Assembly: GCF_023055435.1 (NCBI RefSeq) | Contig: NW_025964383.1 | Coordinates: 29,574,001-29,638,000 of the forward strand | DNA length: 64,000 bases | Reading direction: 5' to 3' | Source of the DNA: Haliotis rufescens | Taxonomy: Eukaryota | Part shown: positions 7,946-54,078 of the stretch, piece after piece | Position numbering within the stretch: position 1 is the stretch's first letter | How the letters are laid out: each line of letters opens with the position of its first letter | The notes under the pieces: generated by a model | Seen by the model: the letters and a program-made list of their open reading frames with translations, nothing else | Databases searched by the model: none | What the model was told of the DNA's origin: nothing | Translations under genes and position numbers: made by a program

Positions 7946-8115
7946 GTGAGTGAGTGAGTAAGTATGGTTTTACGCCGCTTTTAGCAATATTCCAGCAATA
8001 TCACGGCGGGGGACACCAGAAATTGGTTTCACACATTGTACCCATGTCGGGAATCGAACCCGGGTCTTCGGCGTGACGAGCGAACGCTTTAACCACTAGG
8101 CTACCCGACCGCCCC
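7946..8115 (-). mobile_element. SINE family B
   Basis: Full length; TSD TACA(G/A)TCCTAAGA. Confidence 0.93.
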
Positions 8116-10506: not shown

Positions 10507-10774
10507 ACTCTGTGAAGATCCGGGATAGAATAGGTCTTCAGCAACCCATGCTTGCCGCAAAATGCGACTATGCTTGTCGTAAGAGGCGACTAACGGGATC
10601 GGGTGGTCAGGCTCGCTGACTTGGTTGATACCTGTCATCGATCCCAATTGCGTGGATCGATGCTCACGATGTCAATAACTGGATTGTCTGGCCCAGACTC
10701 GATTATGTACAGACCACCGTCATATAGCTGGAATATTGCTGAGTGCGGCGTTAAACAACAAACAAACAAACAAA
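10507..10774 (+). mobile_element. SINE-like family E (no tRNA head; structured 5' end; (AAAC)n tail)
   Basis: GTGAAGATCCGGG...GCTTGTCGTAAGAGGCGACTAACGGG...CGGCGTTAAAC(AAAC)n; about ten or more copies and fragments in the window. Confidence 0.85.
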
Positions 10775-19255: not shown

Positions 19256-20029
19256 CTTAGTTATGAGAGTAACGTTTGGTGCTTTTTTGACTATACTCAT
19301 ACTTAAAAAATTCTTAAGCACTCTGATATTTCTTATGAACACGGCCCTTGTTCTCACTCATGGCGACATGTCCTGACATGTTACTGTTTGTAACATTATT
19401 GTTGTATCACAGCTGTTTTCTCACCGGTCCAATATTTCATGAATAATGGCGGATTTCCCAAGAGAAATTAAATGTTGTGCCATCAAGACCTAAATGATAT
19501 GAGAATGAGGCAAGCGCTGTGGTTTTCTGCATCCTCTACGACCTGTTGACAGAACAATTCACTGGCTGCAAATTGAATCGTGATGTTTTGCCAGTTGGGG
19601 AAGTGAACCTGGCGTTTTTAAAGGAGGTTTATTGTTCCTCAGTATGCAGTTCAAATCACTTGTGTATGCACTCAAATACTCTGCCTATTGAACGTGTTGA
19701 TTTGTCACACTTGACCACCTGGACTACTGTTAAAGTCTGTTTGACGGTTTCCATTTAACAGACAGTAGTTCCTTATTCGTTCATTGAACGGTATAGGTTG
19801 GTGTGGGTGTGGGTGGCGAGTAGGCGGATGGGTGGATGAGTGGGTGGATGAATAGATGAGTGAATGGTTGGATGTTGAGTGGATAGGGATCAGCGGTTCA
19901 TGTAAACTAGGCTATAGAGTCCATGATAAAGAGAGTAGTAGTATTTTCTAAATGTATGCAATCATGTAAAATATGTATTCAATGATTGTTTGAAAAGTTA
20001 CTCAATTAGATTATATAGTATTACTTTTG

Positions 20030-20288
20030 ACCCGAGAAGATCCGGGGTACAATATGTCTTCAGCAATCCATGCTTGCCGTAAAAGGCGACTACGCTTGTC
20101 GTAAGAGGTGACTTATGGGTTCGGGTGGTCAGGCTCGCTGACTTGTTTGATGCATGTCATCGTATCCCAATTGAGTAGATCGATGCCAATGATGTCAATG
20201 ACTGGATTGTCTGGTCCAGACTCGATTCTTTACAGATTGCCGTCATATAGCTGGAATATTGCGGCGTGAAACAAGAAACAAACAAAAC
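20030..20288 (+). mobile_element. SINE-like family E
   Basis: Paralog of 10507-10774. Confidence 0.82.
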
Positions 20289-22732
20289 ACATTTCAGCCC
20301 ATTTCGCCCACAGTCGTTTTTGTGCACCCGGTGCGATCCTCGTGGCACGCTACCCGTTGTCTTTTGTATGCTCAAACTCCATCCTGTCGCCTTTGGTGAC
20401 CTACCCTGTTTTTGGCACTATTCTGTCGTCGTCACGTGCACGCCATTCACCCTTTCATTGTCCTCATGGCAACGTTTGTCAGCCCACTTCCGTGTTCCCA
20501 GTATACCTCGGGCGAGAATATGGCGTCGCTATGTTAAAAGGCACTGTGTCAAAATTTAACAAGAGCACACCACTTCACAGTGTATCCATAGTTATCTTCA
20601 CAACAAATGTCATCGAGGCTGGAACTCATTAGTTTTAAAACAGAAAATCGAAAATCTTGGCAAACACTTTGTATCATCTGTGGAGTAGATGGCAATAGAT
20701 CCATGACTCATGGTGATCCTGATGTTGGTCGGAAGTTGCCTAGCTAATGCCGTGTGAAGTGAGACAGTTATGGAATCGACATTCAACGACCTCATGGGAA
20801 CGTTTAGTACATTCTCCTTATTTAAAAATAATGACAAAGACAACACGAGCATTTCGAACTCTTTCTGTGAAACGATTGCACATTTGAGAGGGTGCCAAGT
20901 GTGACATAGCGGAAGTGCTTCCGCGACGTTGTAGGGTAAGTGTAGGGATACATTAGAACGTCACTTGAGGATTGACTTAATGAAAATGCCTTTCTCTTGA
21001 AGTTGGATGTAAATAAATGTGTGAGCAGTATCAACATGTTTTATTCACAGAATGATTTAGTCTTGAGGTTGAAGAGGGTAGCAGTGACTTTTATCATAAC
21101 ATTTGCTCGTGTGGTTCTGCCAACGATATTTATTTGATGTTTTTGACTTGACACTTTCGAGATATGACGGTACACAATAACCCAAGTTTAAAAAAACCCC
21201 TTACCATCCGTTTTCTTTTTATGTCGGCTCGTACGACAAGTAAATTTGTTGTCATACTGTTTTTATAATGAATACATTTTGATTTTATTTCTTAATCCCT
21301 GCTACAGAAATGGTCAGCCATCCAGGGCCATGCCTAACCAGAGTATGGCGGCGAAGAGATACAAGAAATTTATCGAAAAACAGTCAATATCTTCAAAAAA
21401 CATCAATTAGCATAATAGGTTATGCTACTGGTAAAGTTTGTTTATTGTTTAACTCAATACTCAGCAATATTCCAGTTATATGACGGCGATAAATAAACGA
21501 TTCAAGACCAAACAGTCAAGACAAGACCAGACAAAGATAGCAAGATATTAATTAAGAACTATAATAAGTGGAACTCAAATTATTACCAAAGCATTGACAA
21601 ACATACTCCTTCATGTTCACATTCATACCAAATCTGCAAGGATCCCTGCAGTAAATGGTATAGTAACGACATACAGTAAAATCCAAGCAAGTAATTAATA
21701 ATTAGTCTAATCAATTGAACATTTCATAATTGAATGTATATATCACTCACACACAATACATCTGTTTAATGTAATCACTAAACCTTCATTCAATTCATTG
21801 TCACCCGTTATAAAAGGCTTTAAAGAGTGGTACTATTTTCAACCAGTAATGTGGCGTTGTCCATCACTGTGTCCATCACTGTGTGGGAGAACATCATATG
21901 GATCTTTGATGGCACACTGTTTCCTGTAATCGTTATTAAAGTACCCAGAAAACCAAATTATTTCAGTTGAAACTCCTCCACAGGATCATTACCACAAGTG
22001 TGTCGTCGTCAGGATTAGCATCTGACTCTGAGAAATACATGACCTAACTATTGCGATTATCATGTCACTTGGTTAAAATGTTATACATGACTCGTGATTT
22101 GGCAGTTGGGCTTACTTGATTGATACATTTGCCCTTCGCAGAATCCAAATTCTGGACAATAAATAGTCGCATATTTCATGCTAGTAAAATTTGACATTGA
22201 AATTAACTCGATCGTAACTTTAAGGCTAGCTAGCCCACCTGGCCAGCAACATTTTGAGGCTATTTCACACACTGCCCATGACATCTCTGTGGTTGATTTG
22301 TTTATTTGTTTCTTTTTATTGATGTAGCGTGGTTCAGTTGTTGTTGATGCAGCGTGATTGTAGATTCAGAGACTCGTTTTATGCCTCATGGAGTCTACTA
22401 ATTAACGCTGGCAGCCTTGACATCTCCATTTTTGATGGATGTGAAGAACACTTATAGTTTTGTTTTTAATGATATGTTTTACCAGATAATGTATTTGAAT
22501 TAATAATATTATCATTGTCAAAGTCCAAAGATGTCCCTGAAATAATTAATTTAAAATATGTTCCAAGTTTTGAGTAAGACTGAGTACTGAATGATTTATA
22601 GAAACGCATTTATGTAAACTATTTAGCCCTTAGTAACCAGATAAACACACATTTAAACTGGGCTGTGTATTATCTTTAGAGTGAGTAATTACGAGTGATG
22701 AGTTTTTAACGACGCAGTGAACAGTATTTCAG

Positions 22733-29062: not shown

Positions 29063-30980
29063 GGGGGGATCTTGAACCGATCAGATGACATCTTTTCAAA
29101 AGGATTCGGCTTCATTTCTTTGAAACATCCATTTGGAAATGTCAATCTGAGTAAAATAAAACCGCAACAAAACACACATATACATTCGATAGTACGCCAT
29201 TTTCTGTGAAGATGCCATGGCGCTCAGGAACGACAGAGTCAATACAATATCAGCTCTATTTGTATATCTTCTCAAATTCCCGATTATGTTCGTTTTCTAA
29301 ATATGGAACTCAGATATGCTTGTCTGAATTCTTCGTTCACTCTTACTTGAAAGTTTAAAGCATCGACGCTGATAAGGACGTGACCTGCAATGGGTGTGTC
29401 CTGAGATCCCCACGCAGAAAGGTATCATATCGAAGAAAAAGATCTGACCTTATGTGATTGTCCACATAGATAACAGTTGATGATGAACGAGTGACTGCGT
29501 ACAGTGACCTCAGCTAACCAATTGTATTTCCTCTTTGTCGCCGTGCCAACGTTCCGCTAGACTGGAAAGAGGTGATGTTTGCATACAACGCCCCCGTAAC
29601 CGGCACGTAATCGTACGTCCTTGAATGTCGACCAGGAATAAATTTAATAGGACAGTAGATCTCTTAATTTGGCTAATGATACCACCAAATGAATATTTGA
29701 CCATTATTGCGGTTCATTATTTCCTGTCCGTCTGATGACCTTCCCGTTGACCGGAGCATGGTAAAGGTCAGTCCGGACTTAAATCATGACCTACATTTAC
29801 ATAAACACAAGGGGATAGCATCTTCAACGTCTGCACTGACGCCATTTTGTTTAAGTACTTTTTATGCTTTTTTAACACCCGAGCGTATGAGTGAAAGTTG
29901 TTTATCGCCGCAGTCAGCAATAATGTTGCTTTATTACAGCAGCCAGTGACTAAAACAGAGATGGCGTGGGTGGTGGTAGGTGACTGGTGGTGTGTGGGTT
30001 AGCAGGGTCGGATGGTGAGTGGGTGTGAAACTGTTTGGGGGGTAGGGGGTGGGGGGAGTGGTAGTGGGGTGTTGTTGTTTGAGTTGCATCGTGTGACTTT
30101 GTGATGGGGTTATGGCTAGTGGGTAGAAGAGGTTGGGTGGTTGGTGGTGATGTATTGCGGTGGGTGACTGTAGAGGATACTAAAAAAGGTACAAGAATGT
30201 GTACTTTACTTAAAAAAGTGTAATCCTAAATATAACGTGTGTTAGGTATTAAGTAAAGATATAAAGTAGTGTATCATGGATTAACTCATTTGTATATTTA
30301 TCCGATCGTAATACTACGATTATCGGATTATTGGTGATTCCGGGTGACAACTGATCCCAGCCATCTATGCTTGTCGTAAGAGGCGACTTCATGGATCGAA
30401 AGGTCAGGCTCGGTGACTTGGCTGATTGCATGTAGTGGTTCCCCGAGGGCATGGAGGGTGCACGGGTGGCCCAGTCGTCTAAGGTTTCGCTGTGCAGAGT
30501 TGCGTCCCTTGGGTACGCCAGAAACCTATGATTGTGGGTTCGAATCCCGGTTCGCCCCAATTATGTTTCTAGGTTTGTCAGCATCATACCCGTGCTCGTG
30601 GGTTTCACCGAAATGATAAACGTCTAAGACCTGCATGTCTTCGGTCTTTCCTCCCACATTAAGCTGACACGCTGTGATATGACTGGAATACTGTTAAAAG
30701 CGGCGTTCAACCCCACTCACTCACTAACCCGAGGGCATGGGTTGTTGCACATAATATCAAACTGGATTGTTTGGTCCAGATTCGATTATTTACTGACAGC
30801 CGGTACGTTGCTGGAATACCGATCAGTGCGGGGTTAAAAAACAAACACACCAACACTTTCACAGAGCGGAATTAGAGGAAAGAAAATCTGAAGGCAATGA
30901 CGCAATGTTTTCAGTTCACGAGCTACGGGTTACAATATAAACAAAATCTTGTCTTTAGTGTACATGGGTTACAACGGTGT
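29063..30980 (+). repeat. Left arm of ~1.9-kb inverted duplication
   Basis: Reverse complement of ~33340-35300; mirrored ORFs 29510-29704(-)/34648-34938(+) and 29707-29949(+)/34364-34645(-). Confidence 0.9.
30455..30727 (+). mobile_element. SINE family D inserted into a family E copy (~30355-30850)
   Basis: 13-bp TSD CCCGAGGGCATGG at 30442-30454 and 30728-30740. Confidence 0.9.
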
Positions 30981-33339: not shown

Positions 33340-35297
33340 TACGCCGTTGTAACCCATGTAAACTAAAGACAAGATTTTGTTTATTTTGTAACTCGTAGCT
33401 CGTGAACTGAAAACCTTGCATCTGACCGTCAATCAGAATAGACTTAAAAAAATGCTTTAACCTTCAGATTTTCTTTCCTCTTATTCCGCTCTGTGATAGT
33501 GTTGGTGTGTTTGTTTTTTAACACCGCACTGATCGGTATTCCAGCAACGTACCGGCTGTCGGTAAATAATCGTGTCTGGACCAAACAATCCAGTTACTGA
33601 TATTATGTGCAACAACCCATGCCCTCGGGTGAGTGAGTGAGTGGGGTTGAACGCCGCTTTTAACAGTATTCCAGTCATATCGCGGCGTGTCAGCTAAATG
33701 TGGGAGGAAAGACCGAAGACATGCAGGTCTTGGACGTTTGCCACTTCGGTGAAACCCACGAGCACGGGTATGATGCTGACAAACCTAGAAACATAATTGG
33801 GGCGAACCGGGATTCGAACCCACAACCATAGGTTTCTGGCGTACCCAAGGGACGCACCTCTGCACAGCGAAACCTTAGACGACTGGGCCACCCGTGCACC
33901 CTCCATGCCCTCGGGGAACCACTACATGCAATCAGCCAAGTCACCGAGCCTGACTTCTCGATCAATGGAGTCCCCTCTTACGACCAGCATAGATGGCTGG
34001 GATCAGTTGTAACCCGGAATCACCAATAATCCGATAATCGTTGTATTACGATCGGATGAATATACAAATGAGTTAATCCATGATAAACTGCTTTATATCT
34101 TTACATATATACGTAACAAATGTTATATTTAGGATTACAATTTTTTTAAGTAAAGTACACATTCTTGTACCTTTTTTAGTATCCTCTACAGTCACCCACC
34201 GCAATCCAACATCACCAACCACCCAACCTCTTCTACCAACTAGCCATAACCCCATCACAAAGTCACACGATGCAACTCAAACAACAACACCCCACTACCG
34301 TTCCCCCCACCCCCACCCCCGACTCAGTTTCACACCCACTCACCCACCCCCCTGCTAACCCACTCACCACCAGTTACCTACCACCACCCACGCCATCTCA
34401 CAACACACACACCCCCCCCCCCCCCACCCCCCCATCCACCCTCCACCCCCACCCCCACCCCCACCCCCATCGGGTGATAAAAAAGCATAAAAAGTGCTTT
34501 TAAAAAATGGTTTCGGCGAAGACGTTAAAGATGCTATCCCCTTGTGTTTATGTAAATGTAGGTCATGATTTAAGTCCGGACTGACCTTTACCATGCCCCT
34601 GTCAACGGGAAGGTCATCAGACGGACAGGAAATAATGAACCGCAATAATGGTCAAATATTCATTTGGTGGTGTCATTAGCCAAATTAAGAGAACTACTGT
34701 CCTATTAAATTTATTCCTGGTCGACATTCCAGGACGTACGATTACGTGCCGGTTGCGGGGGCGTTGTATGCAAACATCACCTCTTTCCAGTCTAGCGGAA
34801 CGTTGGCACGGCGACGACCTGATAGAGAAGAGGAAATACAATTGGTTAGCTGAGGTCACTGTATCCACTCACTCGTTCATCATCAATTGTTATCTATGTG
34901 CACAATCACATAAGGTCAGATCTTTTTCTCCGATATGATAACTTTCTGCGTGGGAATCTCAGGACACATCCATTGCAGGTCACGTCCTAATCAGCCAATC
35001 AGCGTCGATGCTTTAAACTTTCAAGTGAGAGTGAACGAAGAATTCAGACAAGCATATCTTAGTTCCATAGTAAGAAAACGAACATAATCGGGAATATGAG
35101 AAGATATACAAATAGAGCTGATATTGTATTGACTCTGTCGTCCCTGAGCGCCATGGCATCTTCACAGAAAATGGCGTACTATCGAATGTATATGTGTGTT
35201 CTGTGGCGGTTTTATTTTGCTCAGATTGCTCAATGGATGTTTCAAGGAAATGAAGCCGAATCCTTTTAAAAAGATGCCATCTGATTGGTTCAAGATA

Positions 35298-39247: not shown

Positions 39248-40049
39248 CTAAAGGGACGGTCAGTGTTGACAAAACACCCAACAGAATACAACTGACATAT
39301 TGCATGTTACATATAGAGATTATTGTCCAACTGTGTTTCCATATCGTAAATATCAAATTGTATTATGCATTTTGTGTTCATAATACATGTATATGATATT
39401 GACGATGCGGAAACACGCGAGGATAATAATCTCTTTATCGTATGACTCTTAAAGTACTCATTGTTTAAGACATGCAATGTGTTTTACATGCAGTAAACCA
39501 AGTTTAGATACAAGGAATACAATTTTGGAGTAAATTGCCCCATTTATCAAATAGTGACAAATGATTTGCAGCCATGTTTGTCTACATATTCACCCACACA
39601 TCGGCAAACCCAATTGCAACTTATTGGGAACATCTTTGATCAAGCAGACATCGCATCAATTGACATACACATGAACACACAATATCCTTCAGAAAGTCAA
39701 ATGTAGCAAATAGTGGCTTTGTGTGTGGGCGATTAGGTGCCTCATTCTGAGGGGGTCTGTTCGAATCCCGAATGGGACTCAACCTCCAAAGGCATAAGAA
39801 TGTGTTCTTTACTAGGAAAGGGTAATCCCAAATATAACATGTGTTATTTGCATACATATATAAAGATTTAAAGTAGTGTCTGATGGGTTAAACTCATTTG
39901 CATATTTATCGGATCGTGATACCAAGTGTATCGCATTGGTTCATCGTATCGATAACACTAGCTATTATATTATCTTATATGAAGATATGTGCAACATGGT
40001 TCCCAATACGTGCAAAATAGAGGGCCTTATGTTGTTTTGTTAAATTGTG

Positions 40050-40270
40050 TGTTTTGCAACGCGCCCTCCAGCTTGTTGACGACGGTCTGTAAATGAGCGA
40101 GTCTCGACCAGACAATCCAGATATTGCCATTCTGGGCGTCGATTTTCGTAACTGGTATACGATGACATGCATCAACCAAGTCAGCGAGCCTGACCACCCG
40201 ATGCCGTTAGTCGCCTCTCACGACAAGCATGGGTTGCTGAAGACGAATTCTAACCCTGACCTTCAGGGGT
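40050..40270 (-). mobile_element. SINE-like family E (single-module variant)
   Basis: Reverse complement CCCTGAAGGTCAGGGTTAGAATTCGTCTTCAGCAACCCATGCTTGTCGTGAGAGGCGACTAACGG. Confidence 0.8.
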
Positions 40271-41547
40271 TGCTTTATAATCAATAATCCGCCATCGTGG
40301 TAACATCAAGCAAACCCAATCTGTCGATCCTGACACGCCGAAGGGATGTAACTCTACATAACGATTTTATGCGACTTGGGCACGGGCTTCCTATTGATTC
40401 TTAAGATAAGCACAGGGTACTGGAGATTAAAGGAAAGAAATTAAGGTTAAGACATTTTGTTAAGTCTATTCTGATTGACGGTCAGACGCAATGTTTTCAG
40501 TTTCAGAGCTACGAGTTACAAAATCAACAAAATCTTGCCTTTAGTGTTAATGGGTTACAACGGTGTAATTTCTGAACCATTTTTGTTCAACATAAGAAGG
40601 CGCTTGAAAGCTCAATGAGATAATACCCAATTGTTGTGGCATCCCGTCGGATTATAGCGTTTCTACATCGCGTTGAGTACGTTGATTGCTTTGTGCTTTG
40701 ATGTTTTGAAACGATTCGAAAAAACACTTCAGACATATCACATTTCAGTTTTGTAATCCTGAGTGTAGTTTTCACGAATGGGTGGAATGTCTCAAAGGGT
40801 CAAATAATCACCCTTTCCGTGAAGAAAAACACAAATGCTCAATCTCGGCAATGAAATAAAATATTTCCTCACTCTATCATTGAGTTAGAGAATTTGCAGT
40901 AACAATTAACACTTCCAAATGATCATCTGTAAGAACAGGTAAAAACATCCCCTTGAGCCATGTCCCTTGTACTGTTACTTTAGTGTGGATGTAGAGTGGC
41001 CTCGGGGTTGAATCGTTCGGGTTAGATTCAACACATGGTAATAAGACTTGAAAAATGACAAACGCGGTGGACAATCTTACTCATGCAATAATACATGTAA
41101 GAACGTCTGGCCATGCGTATTGGATGGCTACAATGGCTGCTCAAGATGGACAATTCTTTAAAGAACCACCACGAAACTTCACATTCAGCTGCGACCTGAC
41201 TGATTGTTTGTCATTGTTCTTTGACCTCATGTATCGGTGTTCATACCATTGACCACCGGTTTACTTAGTCTGGGCTCGATGTCTTTTGGAAATCAGTCCG
41301 CCGTTACAGTGCCACAGAGTTACTGATAACAGCGTTTAAAAGTTCTTTCTTTCATATAGGAAATCTCAATATTTCAGGCACTCGTTAGCCTCTTTTTAAT
41401 TAATTGCAAGCAAGTTTGCCAACGGACAATTAAATGTGTACATTTCGAAATTTCTTACCCCTTTTAGTGTCGAAATAATGCATATTATAGTCTCCAAACT
41501 GCTCATCTGCAAATCTGCTTATTTTGCTCTAGTCATATGGAGATGCG

Positions 41548-43641: not shown

Positions 43642-43896
43642 TTGTTGTTGTTGTTGATTAACGCAATTTTCCAGCTATATGACGGCGGTCTGTAAATAAT
43701 CGAGTCTGGACCAGACAATCCAGTGATTGGCATCATGAGCATCGATCCACGCAATTGAGATCGATGACATGCATCAACCAAGTCAGCGAGCCTGACCACC
43801 CGATCCCGTTAGTCGCCTCTTACGACAAGCATAGTCGCCTTTTTATGGCAAGCATTGGTGGCTGGAGACAAATTCTACCCCGGATCTACACGGGTT
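43642..43896 (-). mobile_element. SINE-like family E, full length
   Basis: Perfect 12-bp TSD TCTTTAATGTGA at 43630-43641 and 43897-43908 defines both ends. Confidence 0.92.
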
Positions 43897-46069: not shown

Positions 46070-48270
46070 GTCAAAGTGATGCCAGCAGCAGGTAGAATTT
46101 ATGAGTTACGTATCAACAGCACTATACACATTCACAGTGATACCAGAGGCAGGAAGAAATAATCAGTGAGTAGCAACAGCAGTAGACACACTCACAGTTA
46201 TACAAGGGGCAGGTAGAATTAATCAGTTAATTAGCAACAGCATTAGACACACTCGCAGTTATACAAGGGGCAGGTAGAATTGATCAGTTAATTAGCAACA
46301 GCAGTAGACACACTCACAGTTATACAAGGGGCAAGTAGAATTAATCAGTTGATTAGCAACAGCAGTAGACAAACTCCCAGTGACACCAGAGACAGGTAGA
46401 ATTAATCAGTTTATTAGCAGTAGCAGTAGGCACAATCACAGTGATACAAGAGTGAGTGAGTGAGTATGGTTTTACGCCACTTTTAGCAATATTCCAACAA
46501 TATCACGGCGGGGGGACACCAGAAATGGGCTTCACACATTGTACCCATGTCGGGAATCGAACCCGGGTCTTCAGCGTGACGAGCGAACGCTTTAACCACT
46601 AGGCTACCCGACCGCCCCCAGTGATACAAGAGACAGGTAGAATTATCACTTAATTACCAACAGCAGTAGACAAACTCCCAGTGACACCAGAGACAGGTAG
46701 AATTAATCAGTTTATTAGCAGTAGCAGTAGACACACTAACAGTGACACCAGAGACAGGTAGAATTAATCATTTTATTAGCAGTAGCAGTAGACACACTAA
46801 CAGTGAACCCAGAGGCAGGTAACATTGATGAGTTACGTAGCAACAGTAGTAGACACACTCACAGCAATACCAGGGGCAAGTAGAATTAATCAGTTGATTA
46901 GCAACAGCACTAAGCACACTCACAGTGATACCAGCAGCAGGTAGAATAAATCAGTTAATTTGCAACAGCAGTAGACACACTCACAGAGATACCCGCAGCA
47001 GGTAGAACTAATCAGTTGATTAACAACAGCAGTAGACACACTCACAGAGATACCTAAGGCAGGTTCAATTTATGAGTTACGTAACGACAGCAGTAGACAC
47101 ACCCACAGTGATACCAGAGACAGGAAGAAATAATCAGTTAATTAGCAACAGCAGTAGACACACTCACAGTGATACCTAAGGCAGGTTCAATTTATGAGTT
47201 ACGTAACGACAGCAGTAGACACACCCACAGTGATACCAGAGACAGGAAGAAATAATCAGTTAATTAGCAACAGCAGTAGACACACCCACAGTGATACCAG
47301 AGACAGGAAGAAATAATCAGTTAATTAGCGACAGCAGTAGACACACTCACAGTGATACCAGAGACAGGAAGAATTAATCAGTTAATTTGCAACAGCAGTA
47401 GACACACTCACAGAGATACCAGAGACAGGTAGAACTAATCAGTTAATTAGCAACAACAATAGACACACTCACTGTGATACCCGCAGCAGGTAGAATAAAT
47501 CAGTTGATTAACAACAGCAGTAGAAACACTCACAGAGATACCAGAGACAGGTAGAACTAATCAGTTAATTAGCAACAACAATAGACACACTCACTGTGAT
47601 ACCCGCAGCAGGTAGAATAAATCAGTTGATTAACAACAGCAGTAGAAACACTCACAGAGATACCAGAGACAGGTAGAACTAATCAGTTAATTAGCAACAA
47701 CAATAGACACACTCACTGTGATACCCGCAGCAGGTAGAATAAATCAGTTGATTAACAACAGCAGTAGAAACACTCACAGAGATACCAGAGACAGGTAGAA
47801 CTAATCAGTTAATTAGCAACAACAATAGACACACTCACTGTGATACCCGCAGCAGGTAGAATAAATCAGTTGATTAACAACAGCAGTAGAAACACTCACA
47901 GAGATACCAGAGACAGGTAGAACTAATCAGTTAATTAGCAACAACAATAGACACACTCACTGTGATACCCGCAGCAGGTAGAATAAATCAGTTGATTAAC
48001 AACAGCAGTAGAAACACTCACAGAGATACCAGAGACAGGTAGAACTAATCAGTTAATTAGCAACAACAATAGACACACTCACTGTGATACCCGCAGCAGG
48101 TAGAATAAATCAGTTGATTAACAACAGCAGTAGAAACACTCACAGAGATACCAGAGACAGGTAGAACTAATCAGTTAATTAGCAACAACAATAGACACAC
48201 TCACTGTGATACCAAAGGCAAGTAGAATTTATGAGTTTCGTAGCGACAGCGACACACTCACAGTGATAAC
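46070..48270 (+). repeat. 61-bp tandem satellite (~33 units) with a 122-bp higher-order block
   Basis: Consensus CACAGTGATACCAGAGACAGGTAGAATTAATCAGTTAATTAGCAACAGCAGTAGACACACT; alternating dimer at ~47408-48212. Confidence 0.95.
46453..46618 (-). mobile_element. SINE family B inserted in the satellite
   Basis: 14-bp TSD CAGTGATACAAGAG. Confidence 0.93.
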
Positions 48271-52157: not shown

Positions 52158-54078
52158 TGTTTGTTTGTTGTTTAACGCCGCACTCAGCAATATTCCAGCT
52201 ATATGACGGCAGTCTGTAAATAATCGAATCTGGACCAGACAATCCAGTGATTGACATCATGAGCATCGATCCACGCAATTGGGATACGATGTCATGCATC
52301 AACCAAGTCAGCGAGCCTGACCACCCGATCCCGTTTGTCCCCTCTTACGGCAAGCATAGTTGCCTTTTTAAGGCAAGCATGGGTTGCTGAAGACCTATTC
52401 TAACCCGGATCTTCACGGGTAGATGTACATGTACATGCATTGGCTAATCTGATGGACATCGCAGTTGTTATAAACCGTTAGTGGTACATTGACCCCAGTA
52501 ACATTATCGCTGGTGAAGTGTTTATTGTCTTTGGTGTTTAACGCCGCACTCGAGTAAATAATCGAGTCCAGACAAGACAACCCAGTGATTGACAACATGA
52601 GCATCGGTCCATGCATTTGGGATACGATGACATGCATCAAGCAAGTTACCGAGTCTGACCACGTACCCGATCCCGTTAGTCTCCTGAAGACCCTTTCTCA
52701 CCCGGTTGGTTTGTTTGTTTGTTTCTTGTTTAACGCCGCACTCAGCAATATTCCAGCTATATTAAATATTCGAGTCTGGACCAGACAATCCAGTGATTGA
52801 CATCATGAGCATCGATCCACGCAATTGGGATCGATGACATGCATCAACCAAGTCAGCGAGCCTGACCACCCGATCCCGTTTGTCCCCTCTTACGGCAAGC
52901 ATAGTTGCCTTTTTAAGGCAAGCATGGGTTGCTGAAGACCTATTCTAACCCGGATCTTCACGGGTAGATGTACATGTACATGCATTGGCTAATCTGATGG
53001 ACATCGCAGTTGTTATAAACCGTTAGTGGTACATTGACCCCAGTAACATTATCGCTGGTGAAGTGTTTATTGTCTTTGGTGTTTAACGCCGCACTCGAGT
53101 AAATAATCGAGTCCAGACAAGACAACCCAGTGATTGACAACATGAGCATCGGTCCATGCATTTGGGATACGATGACATGCATCAAGCAAGTTACCGAGTC
53201 TGACCACGTACCCGATCCCGTTAGTCTCCTAAAGACCCTTTCTCACCCGGTTGGTTTGTTTGTTTGTTTCTTGTTTAACGCCGCACTCAGCAATATTCCA
53301 GCTTTATTAAATATTCGAGTCTGGACCAGACAATCCAGTGATTGACATCATGAGCATCGATCCACGCAATTGGGATCGATGACATGCATCAACCAAGTCA
53401 GCGAGCCTGACCACCCGATCCCGTTTGTCCCCTCTTACGGCAAGCATAGTTGCCTTTTAAGGCAAGCATGGGTTGCTGAAGACCTATTCTAACCCGGATC
53501 TTCACGGGTAGATGTACATGTACATGCATTGGCTAATCTGATGGACATCGCAGTTGTTATAAACCGGTAGTGGTACATTGACCCCAGTAACATTATCGCT
53601 GGTGAAGTGTTTATTGTCTTTGGTGTTTAACGCCGCACTCGAGTAAATAATCGAGTCCAGACAAGACAACCCAGTGATTGACAACATGAGCATCGGTCCA
53701 TGCATTTGGGATACGATGACATGCATCAAGCAAGTTACCGAGTCTGACCACGTACCCGATCCCGTTAGTCTCCTGAAGACCCTTTCTCACCCGGTTGGTT
53801 TGTTTGTTTGTTTCTTGTTTAACGCCGCACTCAGCAATATTCCAGCTATATTAAATATTCGAGTCTGGACCAGACAATCCAGTGATTGACATCATGAGCA
53901 TCGATCCACGCAATTGGGATCGATGACATGCATCAACCAAGTCAGCGAGCCTGACCAACCTATCCCGTTAGTCGCCTTTTACGACAAGCATAGTCGCCTT
54001 TTACAGCAAGTATGGGTTGCTGGAGACCTATTCTACACCGGAATCTTCACGGGTCTCTAACCCGGATCTTCGTGGGGG
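52158..54078 (-). repeat. ~545-bp tandem triplication built from family E SINE copies
   Basis: Near-identical ORFs at 52413/52958/53502 and 52585/53130/53674 (periods 545 and 544); each unit contains one near-complete and one degenerate E copy plus a spacer. Confidence 0.95.

Follow-up and report, generated by a model that had tools for sequence, protein, structure and literature searches.

A module of about 75 nt is common to SINEs, to LINEs of the I group and to viral 3' untranslated regions (UTRs), and SINE copies begin at the base of its first stem, S1. In Haliotis rufescens, the module forms the head of a SINE family, denoted family E, which is represented by several copies in the window (the whole 64,000-nt stretch of DNA analysed, positions 29,574,001 to 29,638,000 of contig NW_025964383.1). 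The original prediction of a chimeric SINE, its head structured, pseudoknotted, derived from a LINE and coincident with the 5' end, was borne out. The head is predicted to fold as an H-type pseudoknot (S1, a loop UG, S2 and an A-rich loop AGAAUA), followed by a stem, an internal loop and a GUCG/CGAC hairpin.

Family E copies and their 5' boundary

The following family E copies were delineated in the window.

10507..10774, + strand: whole family E SINE copy, of the LP-SINE type (see below), with decayed first bases and 88% identity to young copies
20029..20289, + strand: family E copy, with an upstream flank common with the 10507 copy
40026..40271, - strand: family E copy, a single unit without the 22-nt duplication
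43642..43896, - strand: family E copy, 255 bp between flanking exact 12-bp TSDs TCACATTAAAGA
52159..54055, - strand: tandem array with a period of about 545 and four heads (52420, 52965, 53509 and 54054)

Six separate copies had been proposed to start at the same point, at 10507 and 20030 on the plus strand and at 40270, 43896, 52420 and 54054 on the minus strand. All six starts exist, at approximately the same point of the element, but two of the copies (52420 and 54054) lie in one tandem array, the four heads of which are not independent insertions, and the copies at 10507 and 20030 share an upstream flank (78% identity over 368 nt, SINE included). The TSD reported around 43642-43896 is exact, at 12 bp. 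A script search detected an exact TSD in two of the six window copies, one of the two being a weak 7-mer.

Genome-wide counts were obtained by exact-word searches of the 1.33-Gb genome. The family E SINE is about 260 nt long; an exact 16-mer of its head yielded at least 22,322 heads, 16,594 of them preceded by G and 5,728 by another base (the reversed control gave 0), and a downstream 25-mer occurs 13,329 times. The base at -1 is G in 74% of the heads, and G at -2 is found in 3,803 of 16,594 (23%, approximately the background), so that the element starts with a single G, one base before the position given previously. TSDs were found in 19 of the 27 top-scoring copies, 15 of them ending 0-1 nt before ACCCG, and in 8 of 30 family E copies that lack the leading G.

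The first stem of the anchor copy at 10507 is decayed and reads ACTCTGTG instead of ACCCGTG, and its folding (z = -0.40) is no better than that of shuffled sequences. Single-sequence folding of six sequences gave z from -0.4 to -2.6 and is uninformative for the anchor copy. Most family E copies carry a 22-nt tandem duplication that is missing from the fold proposed originally.

Pieces of the head also occur in other arrangements. Two near-identical inverted composites in the window, at 30322-30400 (+) and 33957-34035 (-), consist of a decayed family E head split by a tRNA-headed SINE. Minisatellites with a period of 44 or 34, built of SINE-head pieces, are found elsewhere in the same genome (C1:10727297-10727561, C1:4063281-4063721 and C445:22242496-22242787), and at locus L239 (-), two inverted LP-type heads around a short stretch form a long palindrome. 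Three small-RNA runs contained sparse, mostly antisense reads of about 30 nt, which do not inform on the 5' ends of the SINE RNA. In one of these runs (X21), such antisense RNAs, piRNA-like in size, map to the minus strand with single start sites at L011:1673-1703 (63 molecules) and L063:794-823 (21 molecules).

Relation to published elements

Family E had been presented as a novel element. The SINE itself is very probably already known, LP-SINEs having been described in 2016 (Matetovici et al. 2016, PMC4758252), and family E very probably is a published LP-SINE family or its ortholog. The accessible text of that paper reports SINEs with a "LINE-promoter" head, including Haliotis families of 255 bp, in which the initial ~70 bp correspond to the 5' ends of Nimb-17_LMi, I-3_DR and RTE-9_CPB; the same motif sits in an RTE 5' UTR, in agreement with the resemblance to RTE 5' UTRs noted in the original prediction. 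Family E was compared with Hdi_LP and Hmi_LP, as far as these are presented there, by length, head motif, TSDs and tail, not letter by letter. They are alike in the 255-bp consensus length (Hdi_LP is 255 bp, as is the copy at 43642-43896), the LINE-derived head of ~70 nt, the TSDs and the terminal short tandem repeats, and the 'Nimb-17 homology' segment of PMC4758252 contains the TCGTAAGAGGCGACTAA motif and the AGAA loop, as in family E. The hexamer that precedes the tail repeats is AATATT, rarely AATATA, in family E copies, and AATATA in the Haliotis LP-SINEs as given there. In that accessible text, the head is proposed as a promoter, with no mention of a fold, of viral occurrence or of an upstream ribozyme, and transcription and 5'-end formation of a SINE lacking a small-RNA head are left open.

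The bipartite LINE derivatives of Kojima 2018 (PMC5786205) likewise combine a LINE 5' part with a LINE 3' part and are noncoding, but family E differs in that its middle matches neither of the two LINEs compared and its tail repeat is (AACA)n, as opposed to the (ACTC)n of these LINEs. Searches of the open-access literature, with supplements outside their scope, for the head fold and its spread, for the motif text and for follow-up papers returned nothing relevant; as far as searched, the corrected fold, the separation of the head from an upstream ribozyme and the presence in viral 3' UTRs are not in print.

Predicted fold of the head

The predicted elements of the head, all on the + strand, are listed below with their positions in the anchor copy.

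10508..10512: 5' strand of the pseudoknot stem S1 (CTCTG here, ACCCG when intact); complementarity P = 0.001, held-out 0.002
10513..10514: loop L1 (TG), which may extend S2 in family E; from alignments
10515..10520: 5' strand of stem S2 (AAGATC); 6 of 6 pairs compensatory (columns including the G at 10514), 83% paired
10521..10526: 3' strand of S1 (CGGG plus 2 nt); complementarity tests and column pairing
10527..10532: conserved A-rich loop L3 (AGAATA); AAT invariant in 19 of 19, partly fixed by the search anchors
10533..10540: 3' strand of S2 (GGTCTTCA); column covariation
10543..10548: 5' strand of stem P3 (AACCCA), pairing with 10594-10599, weak in family E; P = 0.0001, held-out 0.015
10548..10569: hairpin unit duplicated in tandem over 22 nt; the 40270 copy lacks it
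10576..10590: hairpin GTCG-TAAGAGG-CGAC with a 7-nt loop that fits the T-loop pattern U-N-N-R-A-N-N
10591..10599: TAA internal loop and 3' strand of P3 (CGGGAT); complementarity tests

Both hairpins of the fold proposed originally are present in the sequence; the two long-range pairings of that fold are not conserved across families. The fold test used 20 family representatives with segments cut around the common hairpin, and asks whether a segment pairs better with the partner from its own family than with those from other families; because the families are related to one another, these permutation P values should not be taken as strict probabilities. S1 (the 5' end with the loop) gave P = 0.001 and P3 (the post-hairpin segment with the 3' strand) P = 0.0001 in the 20 families, as against 0.58 for the proposed GGGUU/AACCC pseudoknot and 0.32 for the proposed CCCGU/ACGGG closing stem. 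For seven held-out loci, the corresponding values were 0.002, 0.015, 0.64 and 0.53. A first version of the test, which mis-assigned S2 in 5 of the 20 families, yielded 0.0007 for S1, <0.0001 for P3, 0.042 for the earlier pseudoknot and 0.81 for the earlier closing stem; the constrained repeat misplaced or shortened S2 in about four families, and all rows were kept. The corrected fold is lower in energy than the earlier one in 18 of the 20 families. For the viral subset alone, the values are borderline (S1, 0.057, and P3, 0.105, in the constrained test; 0.006 and 0.08 in the first version). In an unfitted MAFFT alignment of 19 sequences, 81% of the S1 cells are paired, compared with only 46% by column for P3 and 43-55% for the earlier stems; the low counts for P3 and the earlier stems reflect register shifts in the MAFFT alignment, and the argument therefore rests on the permutation tests. 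The nested minimum-energy fold of a young family E copy does use CCCGU/ACGGG, which may be a local alternative fold in this family.

We infer that L3 lies as a strand in the minor groove. Part of the invariance that the GUCG/CGAC hairpin shows in the scanned sets comes from the search patterns themselves. Among 30 LINE copies that were not selected on this hairpin, the loop reads TAAGAGG in 14 (one with a mutated stem), TATGAGG in 12, TAAAAGG in three and TACGAGG in one, all 30 keeping U1, R4 and A5, and as judged from this pattern the 7-nt loop appears to be of the T-loop type.

The head had been likened to HDV-like ribozymes on account of the cytosine of 'CUAA', but this C closes a G-C pair that is invariant in 19 of 19 sequences. 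An HDV-like ribozyme was rejected for the head on further grounds: there is no 7-bp P1 that starts at G1 and encloses P2/P3, no UCCUCG in L3 and no P1.1; the pairing that would be P2 shows no family specificity (P = 0.32 and 0.53), and J4/2 contains no unpaired catalytic C. A twister reading, based on UAA/GAGG, fails because the other core parts are missing, and a hammerhead reading because the minus-strand CTGAAGA lacks, by eye, its GAAA partner; neither class, nor pistol, has an Rfam match in the head. The proposed check against the Rfam ribozyme families thus found no match, and Rfam scans (the window at E<=1, one copy at E<=10, and the module itself) detected no ribozyme, xrRNA or enhancer family in the head.

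Body and tail of the SINE

Two further segments of the anchor copy, both on the + strand, follow the head.

10604..10675: possible decayed tRNA-like stretch, with a B-box match at 10655-10663 and a collinear alignment with a tRNA-type head that is not significant (P = 0.10)
10717..10774: I/Nimb-type tail and (AACA)n repeats, with a tail core common to the tRNA-headed SINEs of the window

The proposed lack of A and B boxes holds for the head, but the body contains the B-box match. Rfam gave no tRNA match at E<=10 in the one family E copy scanned. Since the TSDs place the 5' end at G1, family E has no tRNA head with A and B boxes at its 5' end, as tRNA-derived SINEs do, only a doubtful internal remnant.

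The tail was recognised correctly as I/Nimb-type: it shares 78% identity with an I-group LINE 3' end across 32-40 nt, a weak likeness (E from 0.014 to 0.6). The middle of the SINE matches neither of the two LINEs with which it was compared, and a LINE family that mobilises family E was not found. Two tRNA-headed SINEs of the window, at 8039-8110 (-) and 46542-46613 (-), have the same tail core as family E and end in (ACTC)n, like the LINE.

LINE heads and the upstream HDV-like module

A search with a variant pattern returned 66 matches, and 30 loci were examined; among the matches listed, two of the 30 loci (L061 and L063) are the 5' ends of intact LINEs, which encode ORF1 with zinc knuckles and an ORF2 of 1,229-1,235 aa with endonuclease (APE), RT and RNase H. 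On sequence grounds, we assign the donor-type LINE to the I group. In the 5' UTRs of these two LINEs, the heads are 75-77% identical to the SINE head over 64 nt, as the LP-SINE definition of a head homologous to the first ~70 nt of a LINE would have it, and compensatory changes in the head separate LINE subfamilies. The head 17-mer of the LINE occurs 893 times in the genome. The two intact 6.1-kb families are young (L063:731-6950, +; L061, -; contigs C168 and C2) and have the HDV-like module described below at the 5' junction. Their first 311 nt are 92% identical whereas their ORF2 DNA is only 76% identical, hinting that the 5' module was shared or swapped between families. Locus L220 was rejected as a LINE start: an ORF1 homolog lies 750 nt downstream, but a SINE-like body follows the head. 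At L246 (-), degraded RT-like coding sequence (YQLVVCADDV) lies downstream of the head; it looks RTE-type, which agrees with the presence of the head on RTE elements.

Directly upstream of the LINE head, with a 0-nt spacer, lies an HDV-like module of 57 nt (L063:731-787) in which all canonical parts are present: P1 with G1.U (GGCACTC/GAGTGCT), P2 (GAAGAGC/GCTCTTC), P3 (ACC/GGT), L3 (TCCTCGT), P1.1 and a J4/2 of the form C-N-A-A (GCTAA). Its match to RF02682 (28.5 bits, E = 0.0037) is below the gathering score of 44. In L061 and L063, the TSD ends right before the G1 of this module, and the element junction was at the same G1 in nine of 11 further copies with both ends found, among 16 fetched copies that the query had biased to A at -1. 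The HDV core is kept in 46 of 47 distinct LINE copies from two position-ordered samples, the exception being cut inside the head, and none of the 47 starts at the head or S1. With the HDV-like module at the 5' junction and the head downstream of it, the two are separate modules, and the head is not what makes the 5' end in this LINE.

The HDV-like ribozymes of R2, RTE, L1Tc/ingi, LOA, R1 and R4 LINEs are likewise structured RNAs at the 5' end of non-LTR elements, but the SINE head differs from them: it has neither a nested double pseudoknot nor the L3 motif nor an unpaired catalytic C, and in the LINEs it is located downstream of the real ribozyme. The ribozyme-bearing LINE clades listed in PMC5786205 are R1, R2, R4, RTE and Ingi, as well as LOA; the predicted ribozyme on young intact I-group LINEs extends this list.

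Occurrence in viruses and other genomes

Pattern scans yielded 120 metagenome loci, out of about 4,000 estimated in the collection, together with viral loci and seven loci in prokaryote assemblies. A covariance model built from 14 retroelement heads only produced full-length matches in eight of 25 viral loci (33-69 bits; E from 6e-18 to 2e-7, these E-values being rough), and the best of the other viral loci had a hairpin-only match of 17.5 bits. The eight loci represent seven distinct viruses, L300 being nearly identical to L309. Five of the viruses encode RNA-virus proteins confirmed by Pfam (RdRP_3, RdRP_4, Peptidase_A21, S-domain or nodavirus capsid); a further viral contig, L298, carries the module and has no Pfam match. 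Each of the six small viral contigs carries the module in sense orientation downstream of its last stop codon; the hairpin lies 52-171 nt from that stop and 17-122 nt from the contig end. In two of these contigs the module is tandemly doubled. The seventh is a large DNA virus (IMGVR_UViG_638276288_000001, 212,482 bp), with a full module (L301:2477-2555, 56 bits) between ORFs, near the gene for an NAD-dependent DNA ligase. The GenBank phage collection contained no match to the module.

Seven bacterial assemblies or MAGs (L376-L382) carry the module. These matches probably represent host or eukaryote contamination, given that one of them, from a bivalve-symbiont assembly (L381), continues into a homolog of the LINE 5' UTR (87% identity over 87 nt); this locus is a single copy with no HDV core upstream and no TSD.

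In SINE families of other animals, the start is purine-CCCC, and 22, 35 or 72-84 nt separate S1 from GAAT, with conservation lost just above the start. The same start at such variable spacing indicates that the SINE end follows the fold, not a fixed distance. Many non-autonomous elements have kept the head. Pan_3 was considered as a case of an internal motif and rejected, the motif lying at the 5' end of Pan_3, and relatives were sought for locus L047 without revealing a separate family.

Possible functions of the module

Our preferred reading, to which we give slightly less than an even chance, is that the module is an exonuclease-blocking, xrRNA-like structure that sets the 5' ends of the SINEs. 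SINE copies, with a head of about 75 nt that would derive from I-group/Nimb LINE 5' ends, would be transcribed inside longer host RNAs; Xrn1 or Xrn2 would trim the host transcript back to the knot, stopping at the first base pair, and the I-type tail would let the LINE enzyme copy the trimmed RNA. In the viruses, a 3' subgenomic RNA would result from the same block. In the LINEs, cleavage by the upstream HDV-like ribozyme would come first and produce a 5'-OH, and copies would start at the ribozyme. Xrn1 cannot use a 5'-OH RNA end. An exonuclease block would therefore fit the ends that track S1, the presence in RNA viruses and the lack of LINE copies that start at the head, the end left by the HDV cut being Xrn1-proof. 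Several observations weigh against it. If blocking were the sole function, LINEs would benefit only by way of trimmed RNAs, which should leave copies that start at the head, and none was found among 47; the purine starts of the well-sampled SINE families fit a transcription start or G1-type cleavage equally well; family E has a weak P3 and a nested minimum-energy fold that uses the closing stem; and S1/P3 complementarity is borderline in the viral subset. The topology is also unlike the known xrRNA classes, with no ring around the 5' end seen in the predicted fold. Class 3 xrRNAs and coremin provide precedents for such a block. Class 3 xrRNAs (Solemoviridae/Tombusviridae, ST9a), as presented in the accessible text of PMC12397905, also combine a compact pseudoknot with a T-loop and lie in 3' UTRs or intergenic regions of RNA viruses, but their T-loop is within the apical loop and the knot joins the loop to the 3' end, whereas the SINE head has the H-type knot first and the T-loop-like hairpin as a separate downstream arm, and so falls outside that class. 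Coremin, a short conserved xrRNA across the 3' UTRs of unrelated virus families (PMC10520033), consists, as shown there, of two hairpins with no sequence likeness to GUCCGAAGACGUUAAACUAC of the module.

The exonuclease-block reading leaves unexplained why an HDV-bearing LINE keeps the module, and a second role in translating uncapped RNA would likely be needed. A rather unlikely alternative makes this the main role: the module would bind an initiation factor or ribosome of the host as a cap-independent translation element that serves the uncapped HDV-cut LINE RNA, acts as a 3' enhancer in the viral RNA and brings the SINE RNA to the LINE enzyme, the SINE ends being made otherwise. HDV-cut LINE RNAs are reported to need cap-free initiation (accessible text of PMC6765202 and PMC13725137), and the conservation directly behind the HDV module with a 0-nt spacer, the compensatory changes between LINE subfamilies, the loop that hardly varies and the location in viral 3' UTRs would all be explained; SINE ends located exactly at the base of S1 are not explained by translation alone, and no Rfam family matches the module. 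Self-cleavage of the head, by a new class of ribozyme that would cut at the S1 base, just 5' of G1, is a minority reading that we regard as unlikely. It would account for the sharp 5' end at a purine that can form the basal pair of S1 (G.U in family E and G-C in other families) and for a compact fold with an invariant core, and ribozymes are known in UTRs of toti-/tombus-like viruses (PMC13725137, accessible text). Against it, 46 of 47 LINE copies retain 57 nt ahead of a head that is itself still conserved, the viral module follows the last ORF whereas published viral ribozymes mostly precede ORFs or pair 186-399 nt apart, and no HDV, twister, hammerhead or pistol family matches. An internal DNA promoter, as in the LP-SINE paper, with the start at the first purine and a secondary role for the RNA fold, is distinctly unlikely. 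The 5'-end position in Nimb-17_LMi, I-3_DR, RTE-9_CPB and several SINEs, as given in the accessible text of PMC4758252, and the purine starts favour it, but RNA viruses that carry the module have no DNA stage, and the spacing from the start to the motif ranges from 22 to 84 nt. Either a promoter or a ribozyme at the head would be expected to leave LINE copies starting there, and there are none among the 47. The Pr77 of L1Tc, which would favour a promoter, is reportedly a single 77-mer acting both as promoter and as RNA structure. Finally, the module might be a 5' recognition site of a LINE protein that finishes integration there, which we consider very unlikely: the R2 protein is reported to bind a 5' pseudoknot (PMC6765202, accessible text) and the head is kept by many non-autonomous elements, but the module is common to I-group and RTE elements and to viruses without reverse transcriptase, and the LINE junctions are at the HDV-like G1, not at the head.

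Returning to the exonuclease block, we suggest, more tentatively, that the module might be an undescribed RNA class (an H-type pseudoknot plus a T-loop arm) spread among LINEs, SINEs from several groups of animals, RNA viruses that are unrelated to one another and one large DNA virus. Acting autonomously to block exonucleases, it would be the first such RNA in cellular retrotransposons and would let a class of SINEs exist without a Pol III head or a ribozyme.

With a conserved head fold that is also present in RNA-virus 3' UTRs, the question of how the SINE 5' end is made becomes directly testable on an RNA of 75 nt. Should Xrn1 resistance, self-cleavage or a role in translation be shown, the module would be a new functional RNA class common to retrotransposons and viruses, for which there is no Rfam model, and it might account for the start of such elements in the absence of a normal promoter.
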